Shown: positions 34,352-57,650 of the stretch, piece by piece
Numbering within the stretch: position 1 is the stretch's first letter
How the letters are laid out: every line of letters starts with the position of its first letter
From: Thermodesulfobacteriota bacterium
GTDB lineage: Bacteria > Desulfobacterota > Desulfarculia > JACQYL01
Reading direction: 5' to 3'
Length of the DNA stretch: 64,000 nucleotides
Assembly (NCBI GenBank): GCA_963675595.2
Contig: CAXXLZ010000002.1
Location: 1,600,001-1,664,000 of the forward strand
Program-made: the position numbers and the translations under genes
The notes under the pieces: generated by a model
Told to the model about the DNA's origin: nothing
The model's database searches: none
What the model saw: the letters and a program-made list of their open reading frames with translations, nothing else

Positions 34352-34367
34352 CCGAAAGCTTTAAATA
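34352..34367 (+). promoter_or_regulatory. Archaeal-style BRE-TATA motif
   Basis: CCGAAAGC-TTTAAATA; first T lies 30 nt before ATG 34390, which has no SD. Confidence 0.5.
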
Positions 34368-34389
34368 GCCGGGCGCATTCCCACTACTC

Positions 34390-34875
34390 ATGAATGGCGA
34401 CATTTCAAACCGGATGTATTCGTACGGTCCGATTGCCGGATCGAACTACTTACTCAATGAATCCTATCTGGGAACAGTCGGGGTCATGCGCACCGAACGG
34501 GATGTTTCTTCTACAGAGAATTCCACCGTCGCGCTGATGCTCGATTCCAAGGTCGACCGGTCGGATCGAAGGATCGAGGCGGTCATCGAGGCCATGGAAA
34601 AGCGAAGGCTGATCAAAGAGGAAAACCTCTCCGGCATCGAGCAGGATATTTGCACCTGCCGGAACCTCATTTTCGAGATGGGCTACAAGGTCTATCGAAG
34701 GGACAGGGACTGGATCGCGTTGGAGACCCGACAGATCGATCTTGAACGGGACCGGAGAATGGAACTTGCCGCCTATTTCAGGGACATTCTGCTTTTAGGA
34801 AAGGAACTCAGGGATACCGTGGAGTACCGGAGGTCGATAGAGGACAAGACCAAGCTGCTGGGGGGGATAAGCTGA
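34390..34875 (+). CDS. Hypothetical coiled-coil protein
   Basis: 161 aa; first gene of the nuclease/HerA operon. Confidence 0.7.
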   Translation: MNGDISNRMYSYGPIAGSNYLLNESYLGTVGVMRTERDVSSTENSTVALMLDSKVDRSDRRIEAVIEAMEKRRLIKEENLSGIEQDICTCRNLIFEMGYKVYRRDRDWIALETRQIDLERDRRMELAAYFRDILLLGKELRDTVEYRRSIEDKTKLLGGIS

Positions 34876-34877
34876 AA

Positions 34878-35039
34878 ATGAAATACCACTACAAAGACAT
34901 CACCATGACGGACGTGGAGAAGCTCTACGAGGTGCCGGGGGCTTTTGCTCTCGCCATGGAAAAACATCAACTGGAAAAAGTGATCGTGTATTTTGTTCGG
35001 GAAATGCAGGTGCGGAGCCGTTTTGACCGATCAAAATGA
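34878..35039 (+). CDS. Small hypothetical protein (53 aa)
   Basis: MKYHYKDITMTDVEKLYE...; its stop overlaps the next start (ATGA); below the ORF-track size cutoff. Confidence 0.6.
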   Translation: MKYHYKDITMTDVEKLYEVPGAFALAMEKHQLEKVIVYFVREMQVRSRFDRSK

Positions 35040-35806
35040 CCTTCAAACGAATGCTGAGCCCGTCGGCCATTCTGGCCTACAAACGGGATGAGAAATTCCG
35101 GTGGGGATGCCCGAGAAAATTCTATCTGAGATACATCAGGAAACTGAAGACCAAACCCAAGATGTGCTTCATCGTGGGGCAGGTGGTTCACCAGGCAGCG
35201 GAAGCCTTTGTACGGGATTACAAAGCCGAACATTTGGAGCAGCCTTATGCGGATGCGCGAAAGCGCATATTGGACAGGGTGGATTTCCTATGGAACTCGA
35301 GAATTCTCGAGATTCGGAAGCTCTCCGGCGGTCGGGACGAAGCAGAGACCCAACTTGTTGAGGCTCGAAAGATGGCTTTGAACTGGCTTCACCAGTTTAT
35401 CCGAGAAGTAAGCAGAGGAAGAAGCCCGCCTGAGCCGGAAAAACGGCTATTGAGTCAACTTCATGGTGCCCAAGGTATCGTGGATGCCCGCTATTCTCGA
35501 GAATTCATCGAGATCAGGGATTATAAGACTTCGAAATATCAAGACATTACCCCCGACATCAAACTCCAGCTTGCGATCTATGCCCTCCTCGAGCAGGAAG
35601 TGCACGGAAAACTTCCCGATCGAGTCTCAGTCCATTTCCTGAAATTCCCATCCTCCAAAGACAATCCCAAAATTTTCAAGCCTACCCAAGAACTCGTGGA
35701 TTGGGCTGCGGAAGAAATCCGCCGAATGCACGAGCTGACCGAGTCGGAGCATGAAGAGGACTACCCCTGTCTATGCGGTGGATGGTGTGAGAGGGAATTT
35801 CAATGA
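35036..35806 (+). CDS. PD-(D/E)XK nuclease (RecB/Cas4-like)
   Basis: LSPS, GCPRKFYLRY, GQVVH, GIVD, DYKTS, QLAIYA and a C-terminal CLCGGWC. Confidence 0.88.
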   Translation: MTFKRMLSPSAILAYKRDEKFRWGCPRKFYLRYIRKLKTKPKMCFIVGQVVHQAAEAFVRDYKAEHLEQPYADARKRILDRVDFLWNSRILEIRKLSGGRDEAETQLVEARKMALNWLHQFIREVSRGRSPPEPEKRLLSQLHGAQGIVDARYSREFIEIRDYKTSKYQDITPDIKLQLAIYALLEQEVHGKLPDRVSVHFLKFPSSKDNPKIFKPTQELVDWAAEEIRRMHELTESEHEEDYPCLCGGWCEREFQ

Positions 35807-37749
35807 TCGTAACTGTTGCCGAAAAACTGAGACGGCTCGAGCCCTTCGTCTCTTCAGGAGAACTTCGGGCTCTGTGGTCGCTTTATCAGATAGAGGAGAA
35901 TCCGAGAGCCAAGAGGGAGATCGAATCCATGGTCGATTACATGCTCCTGCAGCATACGGGAGTGGCGTTCGAGAACGCCGTTATGCTGCCGCCGCCTGGG
36001 GAAGATGAAGCGGCCGGGGAATTGCAGCTCGGACACGTCTCCTATTGCGGCAAGAAGCTCTATCCTTTCGGTCTCAGAAAGGACGAGTTGATTCGCCATG
36101 TGGGACTTTTCGGGCAGACCGGTTCCGGAAAAACTACCGCTTGCATGAATCTTCTGGGAGAGTTCGTCAAGGCGAAGATTCCGTTTCTGATCTTCGACTG
36201 GAAACGAAACTACCGGGACCTTTTGACACATCCCGACTTCCGAAACGAGGACATCCTGATCTTTACCGTGGGAAGGGAGGTCAGCCCTTTCCGTTTCAAT
36301 CCAAAGATTCCTCCGCCCGGAGTGGAGTCTCCCATCTGGTCGAAGAAGCTGATGGAGATCATCGAGAAGGCTTATCTCTTAGGGCCCGGTGCGTCGGACG
36401 TTTTGATGGACGCCATGAGCCTGCCCGACTTCGCGGAAATGAAGCGCTATATCGACAAGCAAAACCGCCGAGGCAGAGAAATGCTTTGGCTGAGTTCGGC
36501 CAAGCGAACCCTGAACAGTCTCACCTTCCCGGGCTTGAATGAAGTCCTAAATTCTCATTCCCAAATTCCCATCGAAGAGTTGCTCCGAAAAAACGTGATC
36601 CTGGAATTGGACGGTCTTTCGGATTCGGACAAGACCTTCATCATCGGAAGCCTGCTCCTATGGATCTACTTCTACCGAATGCAGGAGCCGGAAAGGGAGA
36701 TTCTGAAGCACATGATCGTCATCGAGGAAGCGCATCATCTGCTTCTTCGAACGAGCAAGGAAGAGGATATCACGGACGTCATGATGAGGGAGATCAGGGA
36801 ACTCGGGGAAGGCATCGTGATCCTCGATCAGCATCCCCACAAAGTCTCAGTCTCAGCCCTTGGGAATGTCTACACCCGGATCGGCTTTCAAACCTCTCTG
36901 TCTCAAGATTTCTCGAGTTTGAGCCGTTCCCAGCTCATTCCCATTGGGAATGAGGCCTACTACGGCATGCTCAAGGTGGGAGAGGCCATTGTGAAGACCG
37001 GAAGGGTCCCGTTTCCGTTCCTGATAACGGTGCCGGAATTCAAAATCGACAAGGGAATGGTACGGGATAAACTCATCCAAGACAGGATAAACTCTCTTAC
37101 AGTTAATGAATATCATGATCATGGTTTTCCGCAAGAAAACACGTCGTTTAGGATGATTTCAAACTCGGAAACACTCTCCCCCGTGGAGCGGATTTTGTTG
37201 GAAGACATCGCGCTTCATCCTTTTGACGGAGTTCAGAAACGTTACAAGAAGCTCGGAATGAACCCTCGGGAGGGAACTCTCTGCCTGGAAGATCTCATCA
37301 CGAAAGGCCTGCTCAAAGAAGTCCTTGTGGATCGAAACCGGCTCTTTGAATTGACGCCGCAGGCTGTGGAGCACCTCCACAGAGAAGGCCTGAAACTCGA
37401 GAATTCTCGAGTTCGGGGCGGTTTGGAGCACAACTTCTGGGTCGAAAGAATAAGAGTGGCGCTCGCCGGTCAATGCCGAGTGTTGCTGGAAAAGGACAAC
37501 CTGGACCTCGTGGCGGACTGGAACGGTGGTTTGGCGGTTCAGGTCGAGACCGGCAAATCGGACATCAGGAAGAACATCGAGACCCTCTCGAACCACGCCT
37601 CCATTCAGAAGTTCATGATCGCGACAAACCCCGAAGCCCTCACCAAGATCCAATCACTCCTAGCGGTCGAAGGCATTCAAGCCTACCTCGCCAAAGATTT
37701 CATCGAAAAGATCATCCCCATCCTACTCACCGAAAAAGCGGAGCGTTAA
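35803..37749 (+). CDS. HerA/DUF87 (FtsK-HerA superfamily) ATPase with C-terminal wHTH and nuclease-like domain
   Basis: RHVGLFGQTGSGKT, IFDWK, VIEEAHH, RELG and LDQHP; C-terminal EH..DLV..AVQVETGKS. Confidence 0.85.
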   Translation: MIVTVAEKLRRLEPFVSSGELRALWSLYQIEENPRAKREIESMVDYMLLQHTGVAFENAVMLPPPGEDEAAGELQLGHVSYCGKKLYPFGLRKDELIRHVGLFGQTGSGKTTACMNLLGEFVKAKIPFLIFDWKRNYRDLLTHPDFRNEDILIFTVGREVSPFRFNPKIPPPGVESPIWSKKLMEIIEKAYLLGPGASDVLMDAMSLPDFAEMKRYIDKQNRRGREMLWLSSAKRTLNSLTFPGLNEVLNSHSQIPIEELLRKNVILELDGLSDSDKTFIIGSLLLWIYFYRMQEPEREILKHMIVIEEAHHLLLRTSKEEDITDVMMREIRELGEGIVILDQHPHKVSVSALGNVYTRIGFQTSLSQDFSSLSRSQLIPIGNEAYYGMLKVGEAIVKTGRVPFPFLITVPEFKIDKGMVRDKLIQDRINSLTVNEYHDHGFPQENTSFRMISNSETLSPVERILLEDIALHPFDGVQKRYKKLGMNPREGTLCLEDLITKGLLKEVLVDRNRLFELTPQAVEHLHREGLKLENSRVRGGLEHNFWVERIRVALAGQCRVLLEKDNLDLVADWNGGLAVQVETGKSDIRKNIETLSNHASIQKFMIATNPEALTKIQSLLAVEGIQAYLAKDFIEKIIPILLTEKAER

Positions 37750-37958
37750 GCGGATATCCCACGCAGCATCAGGCGCTTAACAAACCGTATCACCAATGCG
37801 GGTTTCCCCGGACCACCAATAGCGACTTTGTCGGGTGAAGCCTGTACCCACCGTTTTGCAGCGTGTCGTCCTTGAGGACGGCCCGCGTTCTTTCTTTAGC
37901 GAAAGCTCCGACACGCGAAATCAACAACCCGGATATTGATAAACAAAGGAGGTGACCA

Positions 37959-38258
37959 ATGGAAGCGTCCCCCCGCCTTCGGTCCGTTCTTACGGGGCTG
38001 AGGGAGGATTGGCGGGAAGCGGTGCAGACGGTCCAGCCGTGCCATCAATTCGGAGCGGAGCTGTTACTCGGCCTGATCGGCCTGCATCTCGAAGCAAAGG
38101 AAATCTTCAAAACCAATGAGTTACTCAAGAGAAAGGAGCTGTTGGATGAATTCTATGATCACCAAAAAACCGTCAGGAACGCAATCGGTTACCTCGGAAG
38201 TGAAGGAGCCGAGGAAACCGCCCCCGATCAGGATCGAGCGATGTCCGGACTGTGGTGA
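37959..38258 (+). CDS. Hypothetical protein
   Basis: SD AAGGAGGTGA. Confidence 0.6.
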   Translation: MEASPRLRSVLTGLREDWREAVQTVQPCHQFGAELLLGLIGLHLEAKEIFKTNELLKRKELLDEFYDHQKTVRNAIGYLGSEGAEETAPDQDRAMSGLW

Positions 38259-38319
38259 AATTCTTTACCGCGACGGAGGATGTCCGCTGTGCATCCGCTG
38301 CGGATGGAGCGGCTGTTAG
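38200..38319 (+). CDS. Zn-ribbon microprotein resembling the class II RNR C-terminal ribbon
   Basis: CPDCGEILYRDGGCPLCIRCGWSGC; start uncertain. Confidence 0.5.
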   Translation: MKEPRKPPPIRIERCPDCGEILYRDGGCPLCIRCGWSGC

Positions 38320-38351
38320 AGCATCATATCAACGAAAGAGGAGGAACGATC

Positions 38352-38609
38352 ATGAGTGAGAGCAACAAACCGGTGAGGAAGTATCGGGCAAACGGAGTCG
38401 TCGTCAGTGTTTGGGAAAACGACGGCGCAAAAGGAAACTACCATACCTTCAGTCTGCAACGCGTGTTCAAGGACGCCGACGGCAACTGGAAGACCTCGCC
38501 CAATCTTCGGGCGGGTGATCTCCCTACCGCCGCGGAATTGTTTCGGCAGGCATTCCTGGACTTCGGCATCAAGTCGATGGGCCAGGCAGGAGAAGACATT
38601 CCGTTTTAG
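38352..38609 (+). CDS. Putative ssDNA-binding protein (PC4-like) with acidic DIPF tail
   Basis: VSVWEN..SLQRVFKDADGNWK pattern; ends EDIPF like the SSB C-terminal tip. Confidence 0.6.
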   Translation: MSESNKPVRKYRANGVVVSVWENDGAKGNYHTFSLQRVFKDADGNWKTSPNLRAGDLPTAAELFRQAFLDFGIKSMGQAGEDIPF

Positions 38610-38681
38610 GGAAACATCAAGTTCACGGGCTGTCCGAGCATTGTGGACAGCCCCAATCAAGGGTTTTCCAGGGAGGTTTCT

Positions 38682-39137
38682 ATGATGAAGGAAAGAATCG
38701 ATATCGTGAGTGTCAAAATGGTCAGGGACGGCTCGATCCCCTATGGGAAGAAGCCCATAAGAGGGCCGCAGGACTTGGCTGAACTCGGCATGAAGTTCAT
38801 GGGAAACGCGGACCGGGAGATGTTTCTTCTGGTCTGCCTGAACGTCAAGAACTACGTGAACTGTATCCATCTGGTAAGCGTGGGAACCTTGAGCCAGACC
38901 ATTCTGTCCGTACGGGAAATCTTCAAGACCGTTTTCCTGAGCAATTCCGCTAAAGTGGCGTTCATCCATAATCATCCCAGCGGATGTCCGGAACCCAGCG
39001 CCGAAGATATCGCGATCACTGAGAAACTCACCCGGTGTGCCGAGCTCTTCGATGTCGGGGTGGTGGATCATGTGGTCGTGGGCGATGAAGGCCGCTTTGA
39101 AAGTCTGTCCGAGCGGGGCGTCATCAAGACTCATTGA
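38682..39137 (+). CDS. radC: RadC-family JAB-domain protein (short form)
   Basis: DRE.FL, VGTL, REIFK, HNHPSG.PEPS.ED and DHVVVG motifs. Confidence 0.92.
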   Translation: MMKERIDIVSVKMVRDGSIPYGKKPIRGPQDLAELGMKFMGNADREMFLLVCLNVKNYVNCIHLVSVGTLSQTILSVREIFKTVFLSNSAKVAFIHNHPSGCPEPSAEDIAITEKLTRCAELFDVGVVDHVVVGDEGRFESLSERGVIKTH

Positions 39138-39218
39138 TCATACATACTGGAATTAGTGTCGACCTAACGAGGCGGGAACCATGGAGTTCCAGGCCTTTTT
39201 TTGTTTCAGGAGGAAGAA

Positions 39219-39500
39219 ATGGATCATGCGCTTTACGTGAATGTTGAAGAGAAGCAGTGCCCGGAGTGCAACGGAATCCTCCAGGTGTTCGATGAATGGG
39301 AAATCTGTGAGAGCTGCGGCCGCAGTTGTTTCAACCGGAAGAAGATGATCCTGAAGCCCTGCAGGGATCGGCCCGAGCCGGCAACGTGCGGACGCTGCGG
39401 AAACATCTACCGAATCGAGTGGCTCTTTTTGGGGCTCGATTACAACGACTTCGGCGACAGATTTTGCCCCTACTGCGGACATCACACGAGCTTGTTTTAG
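39219..39500 (+). CDS. Double Zn-ribbon protein
   Basis: CPEC, CESC, CGRC and CPYCG; SD AGGAGG. Confidence 0.7.
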   Translation: MDHALYVNVEEKQCPECNGILQVFDEWEICESCGRSCFNRKKMILKPCRDRPEPATCGRCGNIYRIEWLFLGLDYNDFGDRFCPYCGHHTSLF

Positions 39501-39510
39501 GAGGAGGGTC

Positions 39511-39699
39511 ATGCGGATTCAGTGCCGGTTTTGCGGCAGTGAGTACTTCCTTCAAGTTTTCATCGAAGGAAGGGAGTTTCCCTATCTCGATCAGTGCCGC
39601 TGCGTATTCTGTGGCGGAGAATTGGAAAAGCGGGAGGTGATTTACCATGTGGAACATACCGACGAAAGAGGAATTGGACAGGCTTCCGAGGCTCTATGA
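39511..39699 (+). CDS. Zn-ribbon microprotein
   Basis: CRFCG..CVFCGG; SD GGAGG. Confidence 0.6.
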   Translation: MRIQCRFCGSEYFLQVFIEGREFPYLDQCRCVFCGGELEKREVIYHVEHTDERGIGQASEAL

Positions 39700-39958
39700 G
39701 ACCGAGGGAACGCCCATTGAAGAGAAGTTGGTCAGGCTGCATTTTTTCCTTGGAGCCTTTGACTGGTACATCGTGGAATACGACGGAGAAGACCTGTTCT
39801 GGGGCTATGCGATCCTGGGTGACCCGGAAATGGCTGAGTGGGGCTATATCTCCTTCAGCGAACTTCGAAAGTTGAAGGTGAGGCCGGGATTCGAAGTGGA
39901 TCGCGACCTCTATTGGGAGCCCAGGAAGGTCAAGCTGATCTTTGACAGTTCAAAATAA
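39647..39958 (+). CDS. DUF2958-like protein, 3' end displaced by IS1634
   Basis: LPRLYETE..WYIVEYD..AEWGY..EVDRDLYW; the native tail DVNKIRLRK* resumes at 41771. Confidence 0.8.
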   Translation: MWNIPTKEELDRLPRLYETEGTPIEEKLVRLHFFLGAFDWYIVEYDGEDLFWGYAILGDPEMAEWGYISFSELRKLKVRPGFEVDRDLYWEPRKVKLIFDSSK

Positions 39959-41765
39959 CTAATGCAGTAATTTCAGCTGCTTATACGAAAAAGAAAGGTT
40001 TATGGCACTACGTTTTGGTGCTCCTGGAGAGTCTGTAAAGTGGGCGGCGGTTTGAGGCCAACGGCTTGGAAGATGCGGTAGGCGTCGCCTTGGAATTCCG
40101 TTCTGAGGAGGTAGGATTTTTCTGCGACCTGTAGATGGATGGCTTTGAAGGCGTCGAGGTCGAGCAGAACCTGGTCCCAAGGGATGTCGATTTCTTTGGT
40201 TTTGAGCTGTTTCTGCAGCGCGATCTTCAGGTATAGGGCCAGGAAGTTGCAGAAAATGTGACCTTGAACGCGTTGACACCGTTGATGGAACACGGGCCTG
40301 ACTTCCAGGGCGGATTTGAGGTCCCGGAAGGCTCTTTCCACCTGCCACAGTCGCTTGTAGGTGACCGCGACTTCATCGGCGGGAATGTCGGTACTGGTGA
40401 GGAGAACATACTTGCCGTCGAAGCGGGCGTCGTCCTTGACCTTGGCGGGATCGATGCGCACGGTTTCCCGGTCGAGTTTGATGAATTTCCTGAAGCCCTT
40501 GTTTCCCACCAGAGACTGGGGCCCCTGTTTTTTCAGGGTGGTTTTCAACTTTTCCACAAGGGCCGATCGGGTGGCCTCGTCTTTGGCTGCTTGGTCTTGG
40601 TTGTAGCAGAGGACGTAACGGCATCCGTTCAGATGAATCTCCTTGAACCACAAGGTGGGAGTGAGCGCTTGGTAGTAGCCCGGAGTGTCCACCACTTGGC
40701 CTCGGACATCCTGGTAACGGCGCATGGGGATGCCCACGATGTAGTCGATACCGGCACGCTCCAGTTCCACCAGATTGTCGACGCCGACCATACCGCGGTC
40801 GGAGACCAGGACCACGTTGTTCAGGGAGAACCGACGCTTGACCAGGGCGATGATGCGCTTGATGGTGGTAACGTCCGCCGTGTTGCCCTCCCAAAATTGA
40901 CAGGAAAGGGGATATCCCTTTCGGGACATGACGACGCCCACCAACACCTGTTTCCGATCGGGACGATGGTCCTTGGAGAACCCGTATCGAGCCAACTCGG
41001 CCGGCCCCCGGCCCTCGAAGTAGACCGAGGTGGTGTCGAAGAAAACGAGATCCACCCCGTAATCGAAGAGGTCGCGGCCCCGACGGAAAAGTTCCTTTTC
41101 GATTTCGGGCTGATACTCGGCCAGGAAGTCCATGGATCGATAAAGGTGCTGAAGCTCCAGGTCGTCGAAGCCTTCACCGTGGACGTTCTGAATCCAACGG
41201 CTCGCGGCGAGATCGGATCCCGGACGGACCAAGCGTTGGCAGACGCAGGCAAAGACCGCGCGCTCTAGATCGAAGCGATAATCGGAGCGAGAAGCGAGAG
41301 ATCGGAGTACCACATCGAGCCCCAAGGTCTTCCAGAGTTTCTCGATCACCAAAACGGTTCCCCAGGACTTGGCCCAGTCCGCCTTGACACTACCTTCCTT
41401 ATAGAGACTGATGACCTGATTCTGGGTGGAGAACTTGGCGAGACTGGTAAGAACTCCGTCCAAGGCACCCGATTCACGGAGCCTGTCGAGACGGCCCAGC
41501 GTGCATATAACTTTCTGTTTTACCTTCTTATCCTGGCGATAGTTCTCCACGATCTGAAGATATTCATGCTCGGATCCGCCGCTTTTGACCTTTTTGACGC
41601 GTGCAAACATGAAACAAATTGTACGGAATACAGGTCGGCGGAGTCAAGGAAAAAATCGGACATATTGGCACTACGTTTGGAGCCTCGGAAAAAGGCCAGC
41701 CTAATCATTTCGGTAAGTTAGGCGGGAGAGGCCCACTTTTTCACCCTCCAACTGTCAAAGATGAG
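39935..41765 (-). mobile_element. IS1634-family insertion sequence
   Basis: IRs CT(G/C)ATCTTTGACAGTT; target duplication TCAAG at 39930-39934 and 41766-41770. Confidence 0.92.
40000..41610 (-). CDS. IS1634-family transposase
   Basis: YLQIVENYR, FDTTSVYFEG, GFSKDHRPD, VSDRG and YKRLWQVERAFRDLK motifs. Confidence 0.95.
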   Translation of the reverse strand: MFARVKKVKSGGSEHEYLQIVENYRQDKKVKQKVICTLGRLDRLRESGALDGVLTSLAKFSTQNQVISLYKEGSVKADWAKSWGTVLVIEKLWKTLGLDVVLRSLASRSDYRFDLERAVFACVCQRLVRPGSDLAASRWIQNVHGEGFDDLELQHLYRSMDFLAEYQPEIEKELFRRGRDLFDYGVDLVFFDTTSVYFEGRGPAELARYGFSKDHRPDRKQVLVGVVMSRKGYPLSCQFWEGNTADVTTIKRIIALVKRRFSLNNVVLVSDRGMVGVDNLVELERAGIDYIVGIPMRRYQDVRGQVVDTPGYYQALTPTLWFKEIHLNGCRYVLCYNQDQAAKDEATRSALVEKLKTTLKKQGPQSLVGNKGFRKFIKLDRETVRIDPAKVKDDARFDGKYVLLTSTDIPADEVAVTYKRLWQVERAFRDLKSALEVRPVFHQRCQRVQGHIFCNFLALYLKIALQKQLKTKEIDIPWDQVLLDLDAFKAIHLQVAEKSYLLRTEFQGDAYRIFQAVGLKPPPTLQTLQEHQNVVP

Positions 41766-46600: not shown

Positions 46601-46609
46601 GAGGCTGTG

Positions 46610-49914: not shown

Positions 49915-49937
49915 CTGTTCAGACTATGGAATGATCT

Positions 49938-51797
49938 TTATTGCCTTGGCCGGGTTGTACATCGTCCGTCTCGGTCCCTCTTCGTCAGCAGCTTTTCAGC
50001 AAGAATTAGGGCGTCCACCGGCCAGAAACATTCCGGGCGGGGCTGATGCACGTCGGGAAGCCCCTCAATCGGACGGCATGCGAGGATCCGGTCTGTCCAT
50101 CTGGCAGGAACCGCTTCCCGGCCGTACACCGCACCGAGAAGAGCGCCGCATATGGCTGCGTTGGTATCCGTGTCCCCTCCTCGCATCACTGTGTCTACAA
50201 CGCCTTCCTCAAAGTTCGGAGCATGGAGGAGCTGCCAAAGGGCGTTCCAGAAAGCTATTAATACCCATCCTTGTTTGTGCACATAGCCTGGAGGCGGATC
50301 CGATGCCGCTCTTGTGATGGCGTCCATGAGCGAGTCGTCCACATCCGTATCCCTGGCTCGGTCGAGCACAAAGTTATAGACCTCTTTGGGTTTGGAGCCG
50401 GTACGGATTGTATGGGCAATGGCCACGGTGAATAAGCCATTGGCTTGCAGGCAAACCAGATGAGGATGGGTCAGTGCCGCATCCCGCCACGCCCACTCCC
50501 ACACCTGACTCAGATCAAAATTTGTCCCGAAAATACCCAACGGGCTCACGCGCATCAAGGCGCCATTGGCCTGACTATCCGGATTTGGTAGGCCGCGAAG
50601 ACCTCCGGCAACGGTCATGCCGCAGTCGAAAGGCCCCGAGTGAAGCCAGAACACATAGGCTTTACGGGCTTCCTCGGCATCGTATGTAACCTGTGTAATG
50701 AGGGTCCGAGCCAGCAGCGGCGCCATCTCGGAATCGTCCGTGGGCTGTCCGGCAATGGTGTTAAAGGTTCCTCCGTCTGCCAATTCCCTTAGCCCTTTGG
50801 GATATCTAACCTTTATCCATTCAGGGCGTTTGAACTCCACCAGACTGCCCAGCGCGTCCCCTGCCAGTTGGCCCAACAGGCACCCTTGTGCCCGGGAAAG
50901 CAGGCCGGCATCCGGGGATTCGCCGCTCGATTTCGGCCAAGTAAGCGAATAGGGACTGCGCGTTTCAGGACGATTGAAAACCTCGCTCCAATCTTGTTTC
51001 TCCAGATGATCCACGAGGGCCTTGCAGCCTCCAAACACACGGAAGCTGAAACTGAAGCTCAAATCCGCCGAATATCGAACCGGCCGTCCCCTCTCATCGT
51101 ACAAATCCCCTCCTGCCCCCATCAGAATCGCGTGTCCGCCGGCCAAGTCCCAAAACTCCGGACTATTGAGCGACACCGCCGCGTCGCCTTCACCCGCCGC
51201 CACGAGCGCCAGACGGTAGGCAATACTTGGCATTGCCCTATAACGCATGGGATAAACCAGTCGCGCATTCGCCTCCGCATTGTGGTCCGCATGGTGCGAC
51301 AAGAGAACCGTGCAGTTCGAGCTCGGTTCATCCGGCCAGGTTCTTACCACCATCCGGCCGTTTCGCAAGACCGGCCCGCCTTTTGTCCAGGCAATAAGAT
51401 CGCCGTTATCATCTGGAAAATTGTACGCATACACCACGCCCAACACAGGCTTGCTCTTTTCCAACAGAGCTATGGAGACCGCGGCACCCCTAAAACCCGA
51501 CATAAAAGCGCTTGTGCCATCGTTGGGGTCCACCACCCAATATCGTTCCTCTCCACTGCTACATATCCGCGCACGCCCCAATTCTTCTCCGAAAAAACCG
51601 TCTTCCGGAAACGTCCTATCTATCCGCCTTAGGATGAGCTCTTCCGCGATTTGATCCAGTTCCGCATGATGACTCGTCCCACGTGGACCGCCTTGGCGAT
51701 TGAATTCATCACGGAGGACAGAACCTGCAGAAAGTGCGGCTTCAGTGGCAGTGGTGAGTTCGGGGTCGTAAGACGCGTGGGAAGTCATAGTGTTCAC
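49938..51797 (-). CDS. Inositol monophosphatase - ADP-ribosylglycohydrolase fusion
   Basis: N-terminal GEE, WVVDPNDGT, WDLAGG; C-terminal GDALG, TDDSE, NGALMR, TH, GGDTDT. Confidence 0.92.
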   Translation of the reverse strand: MNTMTSHASYDPELTTATEAALSAGSVLRDEFNRQGGPRGTSHHAELDQIAEELILRRIDRTFPEDGFFGEELGRARICSSGEERYWVVDPNDGTSAFMSGFRGAAVSIALLEKSKPVLGVVYAYNFPDDNGDLIAWTKGGPVLRNGRMVVRTWPDEPSSNCTVLLSHHADHNAEANARLVYPMRYRAMPSIAYRLALVAAGEGDAAVSLNSPEFWDLAGGHAILMGAGGDLYDERGRPVRYSADLSFSFSFRVFGGCKALVDHLEKQDWSEVFNRPETRSPYSLTWPKSSGESPDAGLLSRAQGCLLGQLAGDALGSLVEFKRPEWIKVRYPKGLRELADGGTFNTIAGQPTDDSEMAPLLARTLITQVTYDAEEARKAYVFWLHSGPFDCGMTVAGGLRGLPNPDSQANGALMRVSPLGIFGTNFDLSQVWEWAWRDAALTHPHLVCLQANGLFTVAIAHTIRTGSKPKEVYNFVLDRARDTDVDDSLMDAITRAASDPPPGYVHKQGWVLIAFWNALWQLLHAPNFEEGVVDTVMRGGDTDTNAAICGALLGAVYGREAVPARWTDRILACRPIEGLPDVHQPRPECFWPVDALILAEKLLTKRDRDGRCTTRPRQ

Positions 51798-52529
51798 TTT
51801 GACAGTGTGGAAATGCTACTCGATTCTAACCTATCACAGAGGTCCGACCTACTTGGAAGTAGCAAGATGGATGGTTGGCGACGAGACATGGTAGGCCCTC
51901 GGTCACATAATCTTCCCGGCCATCTGCCGGAGTCGGCCGTCCCGGTCCATCAGAAAGATTCCGTTCGACATACATTGCCCCAATGGAAAGTCAGTTCGTT
52001 TTCCATTCGCTTGGAAGTCATGTTATATGTTGCGCCCTTTCCGATCAGGCGGGCGGCGCCCCAGTAAGACTGTCAAGAATGACGCCATCGATCCAACCAA
52101 CTGAAAACAAGACAGTTTCTTTCACACTCTGTCTCGGATTGCTTAGAAAAAAGCTGGCAATTCGTATGCTACACCGCTTGCTGCATTGCTAAAAAACTGA
52201 GCATCCTTTTTCTGACTGTTCCAAAGATGCATATTAGAATGGGATGTTTTCTTCAAGTTCCGCAATCCTGATTATTTAGTTGAATTGCTGTATTCATCAA
52301 AATAATTTCCAGTTAACAGCCAAATTGTACAGATTATGGATCCATGTCAAGATTCTTGAGTTTTTTATTGTATTCTCGAAAGCAGACTTGGGGGGTCCAG
52401 TTTCGTATCACGCCTCCAACGGCTAAATCCGCAAGTCTCCTTCACAACCTGAAAAAAAGGGCACCAATGCCTCACTCTGGGATGAAAAAAGGTTTGTTCT
52501 CCTGGATAAGAATAGGAAAAAGAGATCGT

Positions 52530-52973
52530 TCAAGCCGTTAACTCTTCTACTTCTACCGAGTCATTTGTCGGGAGACGAGCCTCTGAGACTTCGTAGCGCT
52601 CACTTCCCTTGTACTTCGGACGCATGCGCCGGAATTCCGCTGTCACAGGGACAAGTCGTATCAGGACGGTCTTGTTCTTGAGCGGTGAATGTTTCTTTAG
52701 CTCAGAGAGAAGGCTCACCTGACTGATCGTCCAGGTCATTTCTTTTCCCTCGTATGAAACGTCAAACCAGAGATCGTGGGCGTTACTGTCGAAATTGTTC
52801 TCGGTCTCTTTCCGAGGACCGTCGCTCAAGAAAGTCACTTCGAAACCTTCACGTTTCATTTGTTCTGTCGGTTTGAAAAACGGTGGCAGATCGCCACTGT
52901 TTCCCATATTATCCCAGCTTGGGCAGCCGGTATGGTGTGTGCCTGATGTGGCATATTTTTGTCCATTTGCCAT
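52530..52973 (-). CDS. Hypothetical protein, possibly OB-fold/SSB-like with acidic tail
   Basis: SD GGAGGTG; beta-rich pattern; divergent from cdc6. The fold call is a guess. Confidence 0.55.
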   Translation of the reverse strand: MANGQKYATSGTHHTGCPSWDNMGNSGDLPPFFKPTEQMKREGFEVTFLSDGPRKETENNFDSNAHDLWFDVSYEGKEMTWTISQVSLLSELKKHSPLKNKTVLIRLVPVTAEFRRMRPKYKGSERYEVSEARLPTNDSVEVEELTA

Positions 52974-52989
52974 GGTTTGCACCTCCGAA

Positions 52990-53244
52990 TCGGGTTTTTT
53001 CGATTCAAAGATTGAGAATAGTAGCTTTTATTTATAATTCTTTCTATTATTGTTCAAATTTACCAAAAGGCCATAGAGTGTGGGAAGATTTCTTGTGGAA
53101 ATCAAAAAATATTTTCGCAGGCATGCTCTACTTACACTTTGTCGCTACTGCAAAGTGGTTTAGTTTATAAAGTTTTCTTGAAATATTAATCTTTTATATT
53201 ATATTATATAATTTCTATATAGAAATAAATAATAATAAGGAAAA
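52990..53244. other. AT-rich segment, left half of a putative origin
   Basis: Almost pure A/T at 53180-53244; ORB-like TTCCACAAGAAAT on the minus strand at 53088-53100. Confidence 0.55.
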
Positions 53245-54794
53245 CTAGAGTTTAGAGCCATGCGGGGCAGCCAAGTTTGTATAGAAGAGCATAGTTCTCC
53301 AAGACGGGTTGAATACCGTTGACGTAAGGCTTTGAGATGATTGACTGAACACGGATATCAGGCAGCGCGCCCCAAGTCTTCCGGAGAATCGGTGAATTCC
53401 GGTTGGAATTTTTTGGATTTCCGGTTCCACATGGCTCGCACGTTTAAGTTGCCGAAAAGACGACCGATGGCTGCGGCCATCCAGCCGGCGGTGGCGGGCC
53501 TGTTCTTTCTCCAAGGGATTGGAAACATCGTATAGGCCGCGTTGGGACCCAGGCAGAGCGCCAAGAGCCGTGGCAAGCCGTAGGCCAGGCACAAGATCAT
53601 GCTCCATCGAGCCAATGTCTGCCGTGTCTGCTGCCAAGCATTTTTCAGTCCGAACAGGTGCTTGATCTCGTTGAACATGGGCTCGGTCCACCATCGTCGT
53701 GCATAGCGTGTAATCACTTCCGCGCCGTCCATGTCGGGATCGGTACTGATCAGAAGATGCCAATCGGACCAAGAGGGGTTGTCGGACATAAACCGGCACC
53801 ACACGATCTTGCACAACCGGCCGTCCAGGAAGCGGACTTTGGCTTTGGTTTGGTAGAACTGGAAAACTCGTTCCGAGCCGTAGGCAAAGAGGGTTTTCTC
53901 CACCGGACGACAGAATCGTCCGATGTTTTCCAACGTGAGTTTTTCCCCATACTTTCTGGGTCTGCCCCGTTTCTTCCGAGGCGGATTGTCCGGAGGCAAA
54001 AACAGGGCGGTATCTTTGCGGACTTGGCCGATGACCGTCACACCATCGCGAATCAGGGGAACCACCAGGGAGCTTTTCATATACCAGGCATCGAGCAGCA
54101 GAATAATGAGAAAGCGATCCGGCAGCCAAGTCATGAGAACGGACATCAAGAGCCGCGCCGCGTCCAGTTTGGTGGTGTTCCCTTTTTTGCGGATGAGCCG
54201 AAACAAGAGGGGAAACGCGGCTACCCGGCCCTTGTGGCGGCAGATGACAGCCAGAGAAACCCGAAGCTGTCCCCACAGGAATTTGGGGCGGTTGGGCCGG
54301 TGCGCGTGATCGTAATGCCAACCGGCGCAGGGAGCTTTCTTGGACGATCTGGGCAAAGGGAAGTCGTCTATGGCGAACTCGATGGATCGGTTTGGAATCC
54401 GTTTCAGGATCAGGCGCATCCATTGCCGGGCTAGCGCAAGCCATTGGAATCGGCCCTTTTCGATGGCCTTGTAATAGGCGGTCCAGGACAACTGGGGCCG
54501 AACGGCCAGAAGCGCGGAAGAAATATGGCCGCCGCGGCAGACCATACATCCCATCAGGAGTTCCAGAAGAGTCGGAGCTATTCTGCACGGAACGGCCTGA
54601 AATAGAAAGGAAATCCACTGCGATAGGAGCATAAGTGCTTGAGCCGTCGAATCCATTGGTTGACCCCCAAGGAAAGGTTTCTTTCCTTAAAGGGCAGCCA
54701 AAGGCGGCCGCGCATCCGCGCGGCAATGTCAAGTACTTTGTTGTCTTTATTCGCATTTTTCCTATACCAAGGGTCGCCAGACTCTAAACTCTAG
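53245..54794 (-). mobile_element. IS4/IS701-like element, copy 2 (intact)
   Basis: IRs CTAGAGTTTAGAG; 9-bp target duplication TAAGGAAAA at 53236-53244 and 54795-54803. Confidence 0.93.
53358..54656 (-). CDS. IS4/IS701-like DDE transposase
   Basis: AIDD, LLDAWY, RGRPRKYG and YARRWWTEPMFNEIK (YREK) motifs. Confidence 0.92.
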   Translation of the reverse strand: MDSTAQALMLLSQWISFLFQAVPCRIAPTLLELLMGCMVCRGGHISSALLAVRPQLSWTAYYKAIEKGRFQWLALARQWMRLILKRIPNRSIEFAIDDFPLPRSSKKAPCAGWHYDHAHRPNRPKFLWGQLRVSLAVICRHKGRVAAFPLLFRLIRKKGNTTKLDAARLLMSVLMTWLPDRFLIILLLDAWYMKSSLVVPLIRDGVTVIGQVRKDTALFLPPDNPPRKKRGRPRKYGEKLTLENIGRFCRPVEKTLFAYGSERVFQFYQTKAKVRFLDGRLCKIVWCRFMSDNPSWSDWHLLISTDPDMDGAEVITRYARRWWTEPMFNEIKHLFGLKNAWQQTRQTLARWSMILCLAYGLPRLLALCLGPNAAYTMFPIPWRKNRPATAGWMAAAIGRLFGNLNVRAMWNRKSKKFQPEFTDSPEDLGRAA

Positions 54795-54832
54795 TAAGGA
54801 AAAGAAAACATCACCAAAAACTGAAACTGAAA

Positions 54833-54915
54833 GTTCCACCGGAAACTTTCCCTCTCTCAAAATCCGGTTCACTTTCAAGTGACAACAGGAATTTGCACCG
54901 AAAACTATTTATAGA
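54833..54915 (+). promoter_or_regulatory. ORB-like boxes and BRE-TATA-like motif upstream of cdc6
   Basis: GTTCCACCGGAAAC at 54833-54846; GTCACTTGAAA on the minus strand at about 54873-54883; CCGAAAAC-TATTTATAG at 54898-54914. Confidence 0.5.
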
Positions 54916-54934
54916 TGTCCTGTAGAAGAATCGC

Positions 54935-56209
54935 TTGAAAATGTCCGGTGGAGATCATTCAGAAGCTTCCCTGCAATTCATTCGCACATTGCATGACTCA
55001 CAGAAGAATCATCGCCTTATTTTGAACCCCAACTATTTGGACGACGAGAAGTTGCCTGAGGAAGAGCGGACTTCGGTTCTGAAGGAGATTTTTGATCGGA
55101 ATATCCGGGAAGAGCAGCTGAAACGCATCGTCTGTCATCTGACTCCGATCCTGGACGGCGATCATCCGAGTTCATTACTGGTCTTCGGTCCTACGGGTTC
55201 AGGGAAAACGGTTTCCCTCATTCACGTCCTTTCGACGTTTCAGGAATATTGCCGAACTCAGTCCGTCGGGTTCCAGTATAGATACGTGGACTTGACCTCC
55301 CCCAGGTCTTCTTTCGGAGCGTTGAACGAGCTTGCGAGAGCCCTCAATGAATCGATTCGCACCTACAGGAAAGGCATTCCCATCGATCAGATGCAGGAAC
55401 GGATCATCGAAGAGCTGAACCGATTCCAGGGGTTCTTGTGCCTCTTGATTGATGAGGCGGATAATATCAAGCCCAATGCGGATGAATTTATCACCTTCCT
55501 TGGAAAGACCCTTCCAAGAAAGATTCCCTGCCGGTTGGTTCTCATCATGGTCACGAACAAACTGAACTGGGACAAGATGCTGGACCCGCGGATTCTGAGT
55601 GTTCTCAAGAAGACGGACATGCTCTTTGAACCCTATAACGCCTTGGATTTGATCGAAATCCTGAATCTTCGAGTGGAAAAGGCTTTGGATAAGTCAAAGG
55701 TGGACGAGGCCGCTGTCCGAAAGATCGCGGCGTTGGCGTCGCGAGAAACCGGTGATGCGAGAAAGGCGGTTGAACTTCTCTCAAAGTCGGCCAAAGTCGC
55801 ACAGGAAACCGGCGGCAGGCTGTCCGAAGAAATCGTGGATCTGGCTGAGCACAGATTGGAAATGGACAAAACAGAGGAAATGGTTCGGGCTCTCGCTCCG
55901 CAGCAGAAACTTGCGCTTCTTTCCTGCTACGATCTTCTGGCCAAGACTTCGAAACGGGTCACTACGGGCGAGGCCTATGATCGATACGCCAATTTCTGCG
56001 AGTTGGAACGGGTCAGGCCGCTCACACAACGAAGGTTCTCGGACATTATCGGTTCCCTTGACCTCTACGGACTGATCAACGCCCGGCTGATATCACGCGG
56101 CAGGTATGGCCAGACAAGAGAAATCTCAAGGTCGCTTCCCAAGGAAACCCTCAGCCGGTTCTTATCAAGAGAAGGATTCGGTTCCGGGTCGTTCGGCGGT
56201 CTTCATTGA
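54935..56209 (+). CDS. cdc6: Orc1/Cdc6-family replication initiator (AAA+ with winged helix)
   Basis: REEQL, VFGPTGSGKT, LIDEAD, DPRILS, FEPYNA, GDARKA, TTGEAY and PLTQRR..LDLYGLI..SRGRYGQT motifs. Confidence 0.92.
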   Translation: MKMSGGDHSEASLQFIRTLHDSQKNHRLILNPNYLDDEKLPEEERTSVLKEIFDRNIREEQLKRIVCHLTPILDGDHPSSLLVFGPTGSGKTVSLIHVLSTFQEYCRTQSVGFQYRYVDLTSPRSSFGALNELARALNESIRTYRKGIPIDQMQERIIEELNRFQGFLCLLIDEADNIKPNADEFITFLGKTLPRKIPCRLVLIMVTNKLNWDKMLDPRILSVLKKTDMLFEPYNALDLIEILNLRVEKALDKSKVDEAAVRKIAALASRETGDARKAVELLSKSAKVAQETGGRLSEEIVDLAEHRLEMDKTEEMVRALAPQQKLALLSCYDLLAKTSKRVTTGEAYDRYANFCELERVRPLTQRRFSDIIGSLDLYGLINARLISRGRYGQTREISRSLPKETLSRFLSREGFGSGSFGGLH

Positions 56210-56224
56210 CGGACCGTTGGGCTG

Positions 56225-56371
56225 CTATCCGCCTATCTTCACCCGTGTTGTGAACTTCCGGTGGCACTTGGTGCACATCCGGAGTCTGACTTTTCCCTGG
56301 GCAAGGGGCCTGTATCCTTTCCAGTGGCTTTGGGTTGCGCCGCAGTACGGGCATTTGTAGGGTCTTGGCAT
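56225..56371 (-). CDS. CPxCG Zn-ribbon microprotein (48 aa)
   Basis: MPRPYKCPYCG..CTKCHRKFT; SD GAGGTGA. Confidence 0.7.
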   Translation of the reverse strand: MPRPYKCPYCGATQSHWKGYRPLAQGKVRLRMCTKCHRKFTTRVKIGG

Positions 56372-56405
56372 CGGTATCACCTCGGGACTTGGTAAGGCCC
56401 TGGTG

Positions 56406-56454
56406 TATATAAACTTTTCTTTCCTCTGCGGTCTTTGAGCGAAAGGTTTATATG
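56406..56454. promoter_or_regulatory. Back-to-back BRE-TATA-like motifs
   Basis: Minus strand AGAAAAG-TTTATATA (56420-56406); plus strand CGAAAGG-TTTATATG (56440-56454), first T 30 nt before ATG 56477. Confidence 0.55.
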
Positions 56455-56476
56455 AAGGCTTTGCTTCCCAACAAAG

Positions 56477-57292
56477 ATGGAATGCGGAATACCGGAACCG
56501 GCTCACTCTGGCCAACACTCAGCAATAGTCTTGGACTTGGAAGAGCCGGAGGCGGCCGTCGGCCGGATTATCTGGGAGTTTGTCTTCGGCGTTGCTCAAT
56601 ACAAGGCGTCGGCCCGAGACTACTACTATGACGTTATGCTGGCGGATCATCCGTGTCCTGTTTGCGGCGAAAATCTGCGGATGCTTGAACCCGGTTCGGC
56701 GGCCTGTGCAAGCGGTCATGAACTCGACCCCACAGTGGTGTTTCAAAAGAGCGGCTGCTGCGGAGCAAAGCTGGTCAGGCGGTGTCTTCATTATGCGTGC
56801 GCTTCTTGTGGGAAGACCGTGCCGTCCCGGTTCTTGTTCGATGAACGGGTCTTCGACAAGGTCTATTTCCGGCAACGGATGGCGGAGTCCAGGGCCAAGA
56901 CGATAAAACGAAAAGAAATGATAAGGCTCGCCCGTCGAGAAGAGCGGTCGCGCGGGTTGACGTTACTGGAGGAACCGCAGCTTGATCGTTTGCCTGGTTT
57001 TACTGAAGCGTTGGCAGGCTTCATCGGCTTTGATGTGGGAGTTTGGGACGAGGAGTTCTCCCTGACTGGGAATCTTCCTGGGCTGTCCCGGTACAGACGC
57101 CATATCCTGGATTCAGTGAACAGGTATCGACAAATCATGTTTTCCAGGATCGATCTCCTGATCGATGATGCCCGAAGAGATCGGGCGATGCGCTTTGTCG
57201 CTCTGATCTTTCTGCTTCAGGATGGGGAAGTGCGGGTCACACAATACAGTTCGGATATTGAAATCGAGCCGCCCTACAATGAAATTGACTGA
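56477..57292 (+). CDS. Multi-Zn-ribbon protein with ScpA/kleisin-like C-terminal motif
   Basis: CPVCG, CASGH, SGCCG and CASCG; C-terminal RFVALIFLLQDGEVRVTQ..DIEI. Confidence 0.65.
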   Translation: MECGIPEPAHSGQHSAIVLDLEEPEAAVGRIIWEFVFGVAQYKASARDYYYDVMLADHPCPVCGENLRMLEPGSAACASGHELDPTVVFQKSGCCGAKLVRRCLHYACASCGKTVPSRFLFDERVFDKVYFRQRMAESRAKTIKRKEMIRLARREERSRGLTLLEEPQLDRLPGFTEALAGFIGFDVGVWDEEFSLTGNLPGLSRYRRHILDSVNRYRQIMFSRIDLLIDDARRDRAMRFVALIFLLQDGEVRVTQYSSDIEIEPPYNEID

Positions 57293-57647: not shown

Positions 57648-57650
57648 TGC

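Follow-up and report, generated by a model that had tools for sequence, protein, structure and literature searches.

Archaeal-type BRE/TATA boxes before the backbone genes of an orc1/cdc6-bearing element integrated in a bacterial genome

Boxes and genes at the locus

The stretch of DNA analyzed here (the window) comprises 64,000 nucleotides, C2:1600001-1664000, of a 6.79 Mb genome (6,794,304 bases in 3 contigs, of which C2 is one; 98% complete). It carries one of four diverged copies of an integrated element, which are 88-97% identical as judged by blastn of the window and of a reference copy against the genome. The backbone of this element encodes an initiator of the Orc1/Cdc6 family and zinc-ribbon proteins, and several of its transcription units are preceded by a sequence resembling the archaeal B recognition element (BRE) followed by a TATA-like box. 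These boxes are very probably functional, conserved promoter elements. An earlier, sequence-only reading had placed five such motifs in the window, all of which were found there:

34352..34367, plus strand: BRE-like CCGAAAGC and TATA-like TTTAAATA; 22 nt, then the ATG at 34390, which has no Shine–Dalgarno sequence (SD)
56440..56454, plus strand: BRE-like CGAAAGG and TATA-like TTTATATG; 22 nt, then the SD-less ATG at 56477
54898..54914, plus strand: BRE-like CCGAAAAC and TATA-like TATTTATAG (box TATTTATA(G)), before cdc6
56406..56420, minus strand: BRE-like AGAAAAG and TATA-like TTTATATA, before the zinc-ribbon gene, whose SD (GAGGTGA) starts 22 nt after the box
29014..29031, plus strand: a weaker box, CCGAAAGCC-CTATTTAAG (within GCCGAAAGCCCTATTTAAG), identical in the three copies aligned

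In two cases, the first T of the TATA-like box lies 30 nt before an SD-less ATG, as the sequence-only reading had claimed (TTTAAATA, first T at 34360 and ATG at 34390; TTTATATG, first T at 56447 and ATG at 56477). Both ATGs are the most upstream start codons of their open frames, and none of the tetramers GGAG, GAGG, and AGGA precedes either of them. The similar motifs reported before cdc6 and the zinc-finger gene are present as well, with two refinements: the ATG of cdc6 (54941) is located 27 nt after the end of the box and thus 35 nt from its first T, and the zinc-ribbon gene possesses an SD. The promoters of the zinc-ribbon gene and of the gene for a 271-amino acid (aa) protein are divergent, their boxes being 34 bp apart in an intergenic region of 105 nt. 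The gene downstream of the weaker box at 29014 starts at least 70 nt further on and would be leadered if the box is used; since the whole surrounding region is conserved, this box does not stand out in the alignment.

The transcription units behind the boxes contain the following genes, identified from open reading frames (ORFs) and profile matches:

54941..56209, plus strand: orc1/cdc6-family initiator gene (TIGR02928, 256.5 bits; cut-off 181.3)
56225-56371, minus strand: gene of a 48-aa zinc-ribbon protein (Zn_ribbon_NrdR, 29 bits; cut-off 27.2), with the SD GAGGTGA
56477-57292, plus strand: 271-aa double zinc-ribbon protein, first gene of the operon 56477..57647
57279-57647, plus strand: protein of about 122 aa with the conserved stretch TRQGVRWRFQRL, second gene of the same operon
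34390..37749, plus strand: operon behind the 34352 promoter, encoding a 161-aa protein, a 53-aa ORF, a Cas4-like nuclease, and a HerA-like ATPase (Pfam, PADLOC, and ORFs)
35036-35806, plus strand: Cas4-like PD-(D/E)XK nuclease of this operon
35803-37749, plus strand: HerA-like ATPase of this operon

The product of cdc6 contains the Pfam domains Cdc6_C (86 bits), Cdc6_lid (47 bits), and AAA_22, which identifies it as an AAA+ initiator with a lid and a C-terminal winged helix. Nine homologues of the zinc-ribbon gene adjoin cdc6 in related elements, where the 271-aa and 122-aa genes are also kept next to cdc6. Neither the 271-aa nor the 122-aa protein matched any Pfam, NCBIfam, or PHROG family. 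The 122-aa family comprises 2666 clusters at E ≤ 0.001 among the 8000 candidates scored and has the invariant stretch RQG.RWRF.RL; the best 120 of the 2666 are all unnamed or "hypothetical", none of them has a Pfam domain, and the few organism labels among these 120 are Deltaproteobacteria/Thermodesulfobacteriota. The TRQGVRWRFQRL stretch might resemble the helix-turn-helix of sigma region 4. The genes inside the operon 34390..37749 overlap or abut. In the element, internal operon genes have strong GGAGG sites, whereas the first genes lack an SD. A further gene preceded by a box, located at the far end of the element and outside the window, encodes a membrane-like protein of 390 aa, for which only weak membrane-protein matches were obtained.

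The ratio of nonsynonymous to synonymous substitution rates (dN/dS) between the copies was 0.01-0.03 for cdc6 (dS about 0.3), 0.02-0.06 for the zinc-ribbon gene, 0.05-0.12 for the 122-aa gene, 0.16-0.22 for the Cas4-like and HerA-like genes, 0.25-0.30 for the 271-aa gene, and 0.24-0.31 for the 390-aa gene. Comparison of the copies reveals purifying selection on the genes downstream of the boxes.

Enrichment, consensus, and conservation of the boxes

The pattern CGAAAR-N0-3-TTTAWAT occurs only four times in the 6.79 Mb genome (both strands), and two of these sites are in the window (0.04 expected per 64 kb); the shorter GAAAR-N0-3-TTTAWAT occurs 18 times, including three sites in the window (0.17 expected). 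With GAAA-N1-4-TTTAWAT, 13 of the 19 genome matches fell into the four element copies, which total 255,504 of the 6,794,304 bases (3.76%), compared to 0.71 expected (about 18-fold enrichment; binomial p 7e-15). Because the four copies are related by descent, the fairer count is five to six sites per element copy. A broader pattern gave 41 matches, 19 of them in the element copies and 22 in the other 6.5 Mb.

Distances to start codons were evaluated with a codon-usage, longest-ORF gene caller written for this analysis (5895 genes). Before the 5677 host genes, the distribution of TTTAWATA (≤1 mismatch) was flat at distances of 8-80 nt (0-7 matches per position, 4 at 30), whereas 12 of the 21 matches before the 218 element genes were located at 27-31. 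A scan independent of annotated starts, based on how far downstream of each box the next ATG opening at least 60 codons lies, revealed peaks at 29-31 (13 matches) and at 42 (8 matches, nearly all cdc6) in 32 loci of related elements. The same scan of the host yielded 30 matches at distance 30. This spike was rejected as a real signal, because 13 of the matches stem from one repeated sequence inside an insertion sequence (IS), which is not accompanied by a BRE, and the other 17 are in the range of the neighboring distances (8-17). The sequence-only reading had asked for a comparison of motif frequency with the background and for enrichment at −30; the motif proved to be enriched in the element, with a positional peak that is lacking in host genes. 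A chance pattern is excluded.

A consensus was derived from a set selected blindly with regard to the upstream bases: TTTAWATA (≤1 mismatch) followed by an SD-less ATG at 29-32 or by an SD at about 21-24. The set comprised 35 instances, 30 of which remained after near-identical ones had been dropped. Upstream of the box, A prevailed at −5 (25/30), −4 (22/30), and −3 (21/30), G at −6 (17/30), and C at −7 (15/30, with T in 0/30), and C or G was present at −8 in 23/30. The box itself, by whose pattern the instances had been selected, read T1 (28/30), T2 (28/30), T3 (27/30), A4 (26/30), T or A at position 5 (20 and 10 instances, respectively), A6 (29/30), T7 (28/30), and A8 (25/30). The motif is sCGAAA-NN-TTTAWATA, followed after 21-24 nt by an SD-less ATG or by the SD itself. 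In the 32 loci of relatives, [CG]GAAA was found within 10 nt upstream of 6 of the 18 boxes at distance 27-33 compared to 20 of the 540 other boxes (Fisher p 7e-5), several of the latter being leadered zinc-ribbon promoters.

The cdc6 box is identical in all four copies (4/4). Its conservation begins exactly at ACCGAAAAC, and the 8-9 nt directly before it bear no relation to each other among the copies. The box of the 271-aa gene forms an island of identity amid diverged flanks in the four copies. At the 161-aa promoter, the other three copies display a different sequence, GGGAAAGC-TTTTTATATA, in which CGAAAGC, the box, the register, and the spacing are the same as in the window.

The architecture is kept in relatives from other bacterial genomes and metagenomes with proteins of 23-65% identity (locus numbers with the prefix L are used here to distinguish them), and a TATA-like box is located upstream of their cdc6, too. 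Among homologues of the 390-aa gene in the 23-28% protein identity class, the order is CCAAAAGC-TTTATATA, 23 nt, and ATG in L020 and GCGAAAAATA-TTTAAACA, 21 nt, and ATG in L022 and L025; the sequence between box and ATG is unrelated among the homologues of this gene, two of which (L021 and L024) have a second in-frame ATG at 29. The distance from box to ATG is 21 nt for a 386-aa gene in L001 and 22 nt for a 261-aa gene in L005, and the first genes of L046, L052, L053, L054, L007, and L030 show a distance of 30-32. Zinc-ribbon genes in the window and in L001, L039, L044, L010, and L002 share the arrangement of box, 21-23 nt, and GAGGTG, with differing intervening sequences. The 271-aa gene is preceded by CCGAAA-NN-(TTATTATG/TTTATAAA/TTTATATG) in the window and in relatives. 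It is arranged as a leaderless gene in the window and in L046 and with a long SD leader in L001, L044, L039, L002, and L051. As the motif is kept with either leader length, it appears to act on the DNA, independently of the leader. The conservation in homologous elements for which the sequence-only reading had called was thus found, the geometry from box to start being retained in relatives.

The element family and its predicted origin

The backbone and its copies, the sequences interrupting the window copy, and an origin recognition box (ORB)-like palindrome are located as follows:

27396..58056, no strand assigned: conserved backbone of the window copy (blastn against the genome)
C1:~1403500-1444200, C2:~868000-932000, and C2:~4232000-4298100: the other element copies (blastn, 88-97% identical)
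54829..54850, no strand assigned: ORB-like palindrome GAAAGTTCCACCGGAAACTTTC, upstream of cdc6
39935-41766 and 53243-54795: IS elements interrupting the window copy
43189-45753: group II intron (Rfam match at 45660-45749), with an ORF for a reverse transcriptase/maturase/HNH protein at 43798-45660

In each copy, the backbone is accompanied by variable cargo of 12-41 kb and, at the far end, by the conserved 390-aa gene. The window copy extends past the window to about C2:1712100, a part that includes cargo genes, the 390-aa gene, and an integrase-like region; a tyrosine integrase gene adjoins the reference copy. Further backbone genes encode RadC, a VWA protein, an AAA ATPase, and a DUF3150 protein. 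Terminator-like sites composed of a hairpin and a T-tract are found within the element at 42203-42235 and 46843-46873.

According to the accessible text of a study on archaeal origins, ORB and mini-ORB repeats share a TTCC..GAA core, an example of a mini-ORB being TTCCAGTGGAACT (PMC1904270). In the reference copy (C2:906920-907290), an inverted partner, TTTCCGGTGGAAAG, and a stretch of about 200 bp with 23-31% GC lie just beyond the palindrome, so that boxes of the TTCCACCGGAA type in inverted orientation flank the AT-rich stretch upstream of cdc6. Relatives carry similar boxes, GTTCCATCGGAAAT, before cdc6 and overlapping its start. Since the loose pattern TTCC-N4-6-GAA is common in the whole genome (0.55 per kb), the case for an ORB rests on the longer conserved palindrome, the inverted partner, and the stretch of 23-31% GC. 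ORB-type repeats and an AT-rich stretch are present beside cdc6. In the window copy, the IS element at 53243-54795 separates the ORB-like box from the AT-rich stretch and may have disabled the predicted origin of this copy. Judged from these sequences, the element family lives in bacteria with what appears to be an archaeal-type replication module (orc1/cdc6, ORB-like repeats, and AT-rich stretch).

Among 8000 candidates scored, 787 relatives of Cdc6 were obtained at E ≤ 0.001. Of the best 120 of these 787, three are 88-93% identical and nearly all others 61-69%; one shorter protein of 286 residues is 99% identical over 63% of the query. The few named relatives among the 120 belong to Thermodesulfobacteriota or to "delta proteobacterium NaphS2". 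A pattern scan with one genome per species gave at least 11 loci. Ten of them encode a Cdc6 of 58-64% identity, and the eleventh is archaeal with 36% identity. The labels of the ten bacterial loci are Desulfatiglandales, NaphS2, Desulfopila, Thermodesulfobacteriota, Desulfosarcina variabilis, uncultured delta proteobacterium, Desulfarculaceae, Hydrogenedentes, and "uncultured bacterium"; the relative L005 lies in the complete chromosome record of Desulfosarcina variabilis str. Montpellier. Of 400 other genomes sampled evenly across the phylum, two contain a close cdc6 (61-64%) and a third a distant one (29%), and homologues of the 390-aa gene occur in three of the 400. Metagenome contigs provided 30 more loci, 18 of them with a Cdc6 of at least 56% identity, and no Cdc6 relatives were found in viral contigs. 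In a plasmid collection, 429 records had a cdc6 match, all below 60% identity (26.8-31.5% in the 15 rows listed), and those among the ten most frequent genera and the 15 rows listed are all archaeal.

Several other observations concern the surroundings of the backbone. The window contains four IS insertions (20159-22044, 22050-23602, 39935-41766, and 53243-54795), whose families are represented in the genome by roughly 12-22 near-identical full-length copies each (96-100% identical). The insertions at 22050-23602 and 53243-54795 belong to one family, the internal sequence of which causes the spurious genome-wide TATA spike at distance 30. The group II intron, which is also carried by the other element copies, follows directly after the ORF of a 315-aa AAA ATPase (42265-43212) and precedes an ORF at 45750-46232. 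The cargo segment includes a gene pair for an AddB-like (PD-(D/E)XK) protein and an AddA/UvrD-like helicase (58205-63968), a second copy of which is located at C2:4717514-4723314 (95.9% identical). Outside the backbone and beside IS elements, a protein of 633 aa that combines a DnaG-type CHC2 zinc finger with an AAA_25 domain and resembles a primase–helicase is encoded at 15696-17597 (minus strand); it may belong to another mobile element. A piece of 341 bp at 12376-12716 is 88.9% identical to the end of the reference copy (C2:928526-928866) and lies 15 kb from the backbone in opposite orientation, which suggests an IS-mediated rearrangement of the end of the window copy. The region beside or within the reference copy (L012, C2:874959-885849) encodes a TPR-CHAT protein of 1268 aa and two proteins in which caspase domains are fused to formylglycine-generating-enzyme-like domains. 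These genes look like conflict or defence genes and are not preceded by BRE/TATA boxes.

Possible readers of the boxes and comparison with known systems

In a six-frame search of the host genome, neither TBP (PF00352) nor TFIIB/TFB (PF00382) was matched, while four of four archaeal controls were positive; TFE was likewise without a match. Matches to the TFIIB-type zinc ribbon (PF08271) were all below the cut-off and outside the element copies, and none of three other element-bearing genomes contains a TBP or TFIIB domain. The host genome harbors nine genes with sigma-70 region 2, none of them within the element copies, and a single bacterial rpoB: the second-largest-subunit domain of RNA polymerase was matched once, in an open frame of 1396 aa, and no archaeal-type polymerase was found, this sole match being the bacterial rpoB. 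With nine sigma-70-family genes, one rpoB, and no TBP, TFIIB/TFB, or TFE, the host is a bacterium, and its transcription machinery is of the usual bacterial kind.

The boxes do not conform to the bacterial consensus either. No site of the type TTGACA-N16-18-TANNNT was found at any box, and the totals for the regions equaled those of shuffled sequences (7 vs. 9.8 ± 3.1 and 8 vs. 8.0 ± 3.5). As read from the sequence, TTTAWATA cannot be aligned with a −10 hexamer such that A falls at position 2 and T at position 6, and no −10-like element is conserved at −12 to −7 before the ATGs. A leaderless class of bacterial type is not apparent in the host, as no accumulation of TANNNT was seen at −12 before host genes. 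An explanation of the box positions by sigma-70, which the sequence-only reading had named as a way to overturn its proposal, was thus checked, and no sigma-70-type pair of −35 and −10 elements fits the boxes.

Several other candidates were rejected. Inspection by eye against consensus sequences revealed no conserved elements at the right spacing for sigma-54 (GG-N10-GC) or for sigma factors of the extracytoplasmic function type (−35 CGAAAC, −10 16 nt later); sigma-28 was dismissed in the same way, only the 390-aa promoter having CCGAT. Three promoters of the host genome share GCTTCCC about 10 nt past the box, a motif that relatives do not keep. A role at the RNA level as an AU-rich translational enhancer was rejected because two of the boxes point apart, with 34 bp between them, in the divergent 105-nt intergenic region.

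The sequence-only reading had interpreted the motifs as relic or functional TBP/TFB-type promoters or as sites for an element-encoded factor. What stands of this is a set of element-specific promoters with archaeal BRE/TATA consensus and geometry before SD-less first genes. The term relic does not fit genes under purifying selection and footprints that begin exactly at the CCGAAA edge, and a genuine TBP/TFB reading does not fit a 98% complete genome with a single bacterial rpoB and no TBP, TFIIB/TFB, or TFE.

We tentatively favor, with somewhat less than even confidence, the reading that the boxes are selectively maintained core promoters of the backbone genes, which would be read by the bacterial polymerase via a putative element-encoded factor and would give leaderless mRNAs. 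This caution applies to the statement as a whole: the position, enrichment, consensus, and conservation of the boxes, the selection, and the absence of TBP, TFB, and a canonical sigma-70 signature are shown, whereas we infer the start site, that translation is leaderless, and that a factor exists and which one it is. The promoted genes would be cdc6, the zinc-ribbon gene, the 271-aa/122-aa operon, the 161-aa/Cas4-like/HerA-like operon, and the 390-aa gene outside the window. The composite promoter sCGAAA-NN-TTTAWATA would set the start 21-24 nt downstream of the box, and the message would begin either directly with the ATG (leaderless) or with the first base of the SD. With no TBP/TFB and only a bacterial polymerase present, the boxes cannot be read in the archaeal way; instead, a DNA-binding factor, probably encoded by the element, would recognize CGAAA/TATA and position the bacterial polymerase. 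Candidates for such a factor are the 48-aa zinc-ribbon, the 271-aa double zinc-ribbon, and the 122-aa proteins, whose genes are always beside cdc6 and have the same promoters, or Orc1/Cdc6, which is considered because ACCGAAAACTATTT at the cdc6 and 390-aa promoters resembles the ORB-like ACCGGAAACTTTCC. The lack of an SD before the first genes and the constant spacing of 21-24 nt would be explained if the messages start there. Since the genes were kept working while the copies diverged, the promoters are not relics. In a broader version, which we consider improbable, bacterial elements kept a whole archaeal-style module (Orc1/Cdc6-ORB origin and BRE/TATA leaderless promoters) with their own basal factor or factors docking the bacterial polymerase, or the promoters work in both domains and so allow cross-domain transfer. 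The route via own basal factors, if true, would represent a sigma-independent or sigma-appropriating initiation that mimics TBP/TFB geometry.

A number of points weigh against an element-encoded factor and starts at the ATG. An AT-rich box can serve as a weak −10 element for sigma-70, and no bacterial polymerase is known to start about 23 nt past a TATA-like box without a −10 element. A minority of the boxes do contain TANNNT (TTATTATG, TTTATATATT, and TTTATATACT), and in L001, L044, and L039 it is TTATTATG that precedes the 271-aa gene. The start sites are predicted from the sequence, the start codons come from our longest-ORF caller, and the alignment shows that the N-termini of the 271-aa family are not conserved. 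The fixed spacing among copies of one genome is partly inheritance, and the consensus set holds one known false positive (a sequence inside an IS) and four sites that entered twice, in overlapping registers. No element-encoded sigma factor was recognizable in the element copies, and no T7-like polymerase was found in the host genome by a search that lacked a positive control. For the conserved neighbors of cdc6, Pfam, NCBIfam, PHROGs, and PADLOC gave no useful family except the NrdR-like zinc ribbon; profile searches against PDB sequences returned only insignificant matches (E ≥ 0.8), and a protein atlas returned no usable match. The AlphaFold models were poor (271 aa, pLDDT 66.0; 122 aa, pLDDT 60.5).

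The main rival, which we regard as serious although rather unlikely, is that the box serves the host sigma-70 holoenzyme as a −10 element without a −35 element, with a start about 7 nt downstream that gives SD-less leaders of about 15 nt, and with CGAAA as the operator of an element regulator. No new machinery would be required: nine sigma-70-family genes are present in the host, the terminator-like hairpin and T-tract sites within the element would suit its single, bacterial polymerase, and some boxes hold a fair −10 element, such as TATTAT in TTATTATG. The regulator might be Orc1/Cdc6, given the likeness of the CGAAAC-TTT junction to the right half of the ORB-like box (CCGGAAACTTTCCC), and ACCGAAAACTATTT of the cdc6 and 390-aa promoters is similar to the ORB-like ACCGGAAACTTTCC. 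However, the consensus TTTAWATA lacks the register with A2 and T6, and most instances lack TANNNT. A start 7 nt downstream would leave unexplained why the distance from box to ATG or SD is constant at 21-24 nt across families and distant relatives, and why the first genes lack an SD although those of internal genes are strong. Drift to TATAAT and gain of a −35 element would also be expected after a long stay in bacteria, and neither is seen.

That the boxes are functionless relics of an archaeal ancestor or a chance pattern is strongly disfavored. AT-rich boxes are common in intergenic regions and the four copies share descent, but the motif is enriched about 18-fold in the element copies (13 vs. 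0.71 expected), host genes show no positional peak, and the boxes are conserved at 23-65% protein identity with diverged flanks, with clear footprints and purifying selection downstream. If TBP- and TFB-like proteins had diverged so far that profile searches miss them, the boxes could be genuine TBP/TFB-type promoters, which the consensus, the geometry, and the zinc-ribbon proteins conserved beside cdc6 would match. Such proteins are nevertheless highly improbable in view of the search results (no TBP, TFIIB, or TFE in the host and no TBP or TFIIB in the three other host genomes, with TBP and TFIIB detected in 4/4 archaeal controls), and the only polymerase is bacterial; bacterial polymerase lacks the surfaces that TFB uses. 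In addition, the model of the 271-aa protein, poor as it is (pLDDT 66), does not suggest a cyclin-like all-helical core. We give slightly more, though still little, credence to an element that shuttles between co-living archaea and bacteria, with archaeal hosts maintaining BRE/TATA by selection and weak or fortuitous expression in the bacteria. The replication module and the promoter consensus are both archaeal in type, and the plasmid cdc6 matches are all archaeal among those listed. On the other side, the named close Cdc6 relatives (57-69%) are all bacterial (Thermodesulfobacteriota, NaphS2, Desulfosarcina, Desulfarculaceae, Desulfopila, and Hydrogenedentes), the single archaeal locus among at least 11 is only 36% identical, and four copies have diverged in one bacterial genome under strong purifying selection, with bacterial IS elements, a group II intron, and strong GGAGG sites at internal genes.

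Few molecular features separate bacteria from archaea as sharply as promoter architecture. In the element described here, a promoter of archaeal consensus and spacing is kept by selection in bacteria without TBP/TFB, beside an archaeal-type initiator and a predicted origin of the same type. If the messages start at the ATG, the bacterial polymerase would be directed in a manner undescribed for any sigma factor, and the small conserved proteins beside cdc6 would be candidate initiation factors of a novel type. Should the box instead serve sigma-70 as a −10 element, the locus would be a natural example of archaeal genes that stay expressed past the domain boundary, and the persistence of the BRE-like part and of the spacing would become the question.

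A literature search of partial coverage, which is not proof of absence, yielded no account of orc1/cdc6 elements from bacteria or of bacterial promoters of archaeal type. The predicted origin resembles archaeal origins in that orc1/cdc6 lies beside inverted ORB-like repeats and an AT-rich stretch, but here it is located on an integrated element in bacteria. For haloarchaea, the accessible text of a transcriptome study gives a proposed BRE of "CGAAA" and a TATA element of "TTWT" and reports 72% of the Haloferax volcanii transcripts as leaderless (PMC4983044). The boxes share with archaeal BRE/TATA promoters the purine-rich CGAAA abutting a box of the TTTAWATA type, both of which are present here, as well as the 21-24 nt from box to presumed start, putatively leaderless first genes, and internal genes with SDs. 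Unlike these promoters, they reside in a bacterial host without TBP, TFB, and TFE and with a single bacterial polymerase, and their close relatives are in bacterial records. They therefore fall outside the archaeal promoters, which are defined by TBP, TFB, and archaeal polymerase, and they also lack the −35/−10 pair that defines canonical sigma-70 promoters, a −10-like hexamer being contained in a minority of the boxes. With the latter, including the −10-only and extended −10 types, they have in common an AT-rich hexamer-like box before genes and a factor that is present in the host; they differ in the absence of a −35 element at 16-18 nt and of TANNNT in the consensus, in the conserved CGAAA in place of the spacer, and in a spacing that fits a start about 23 nt downstream rather than about 7 nt.

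The middle promoters of phage T4 combine a MotA box near −30 with sigma appropriation and retain the sigma-70 −10 element, and its late promoters carry TATAAATA at −10, a TATA-like box of 8 bp that is read by gp55. No MotA-, AsiA-, or gp55-like protein was recognized among the 10 element proteins scanned with PHROGs. Both classes of T4 promoters differ from the boxes described here in keeping an element at −10, but they provide a precedent for a mobile element that redirects the bacterial polymerase via its own small factors.

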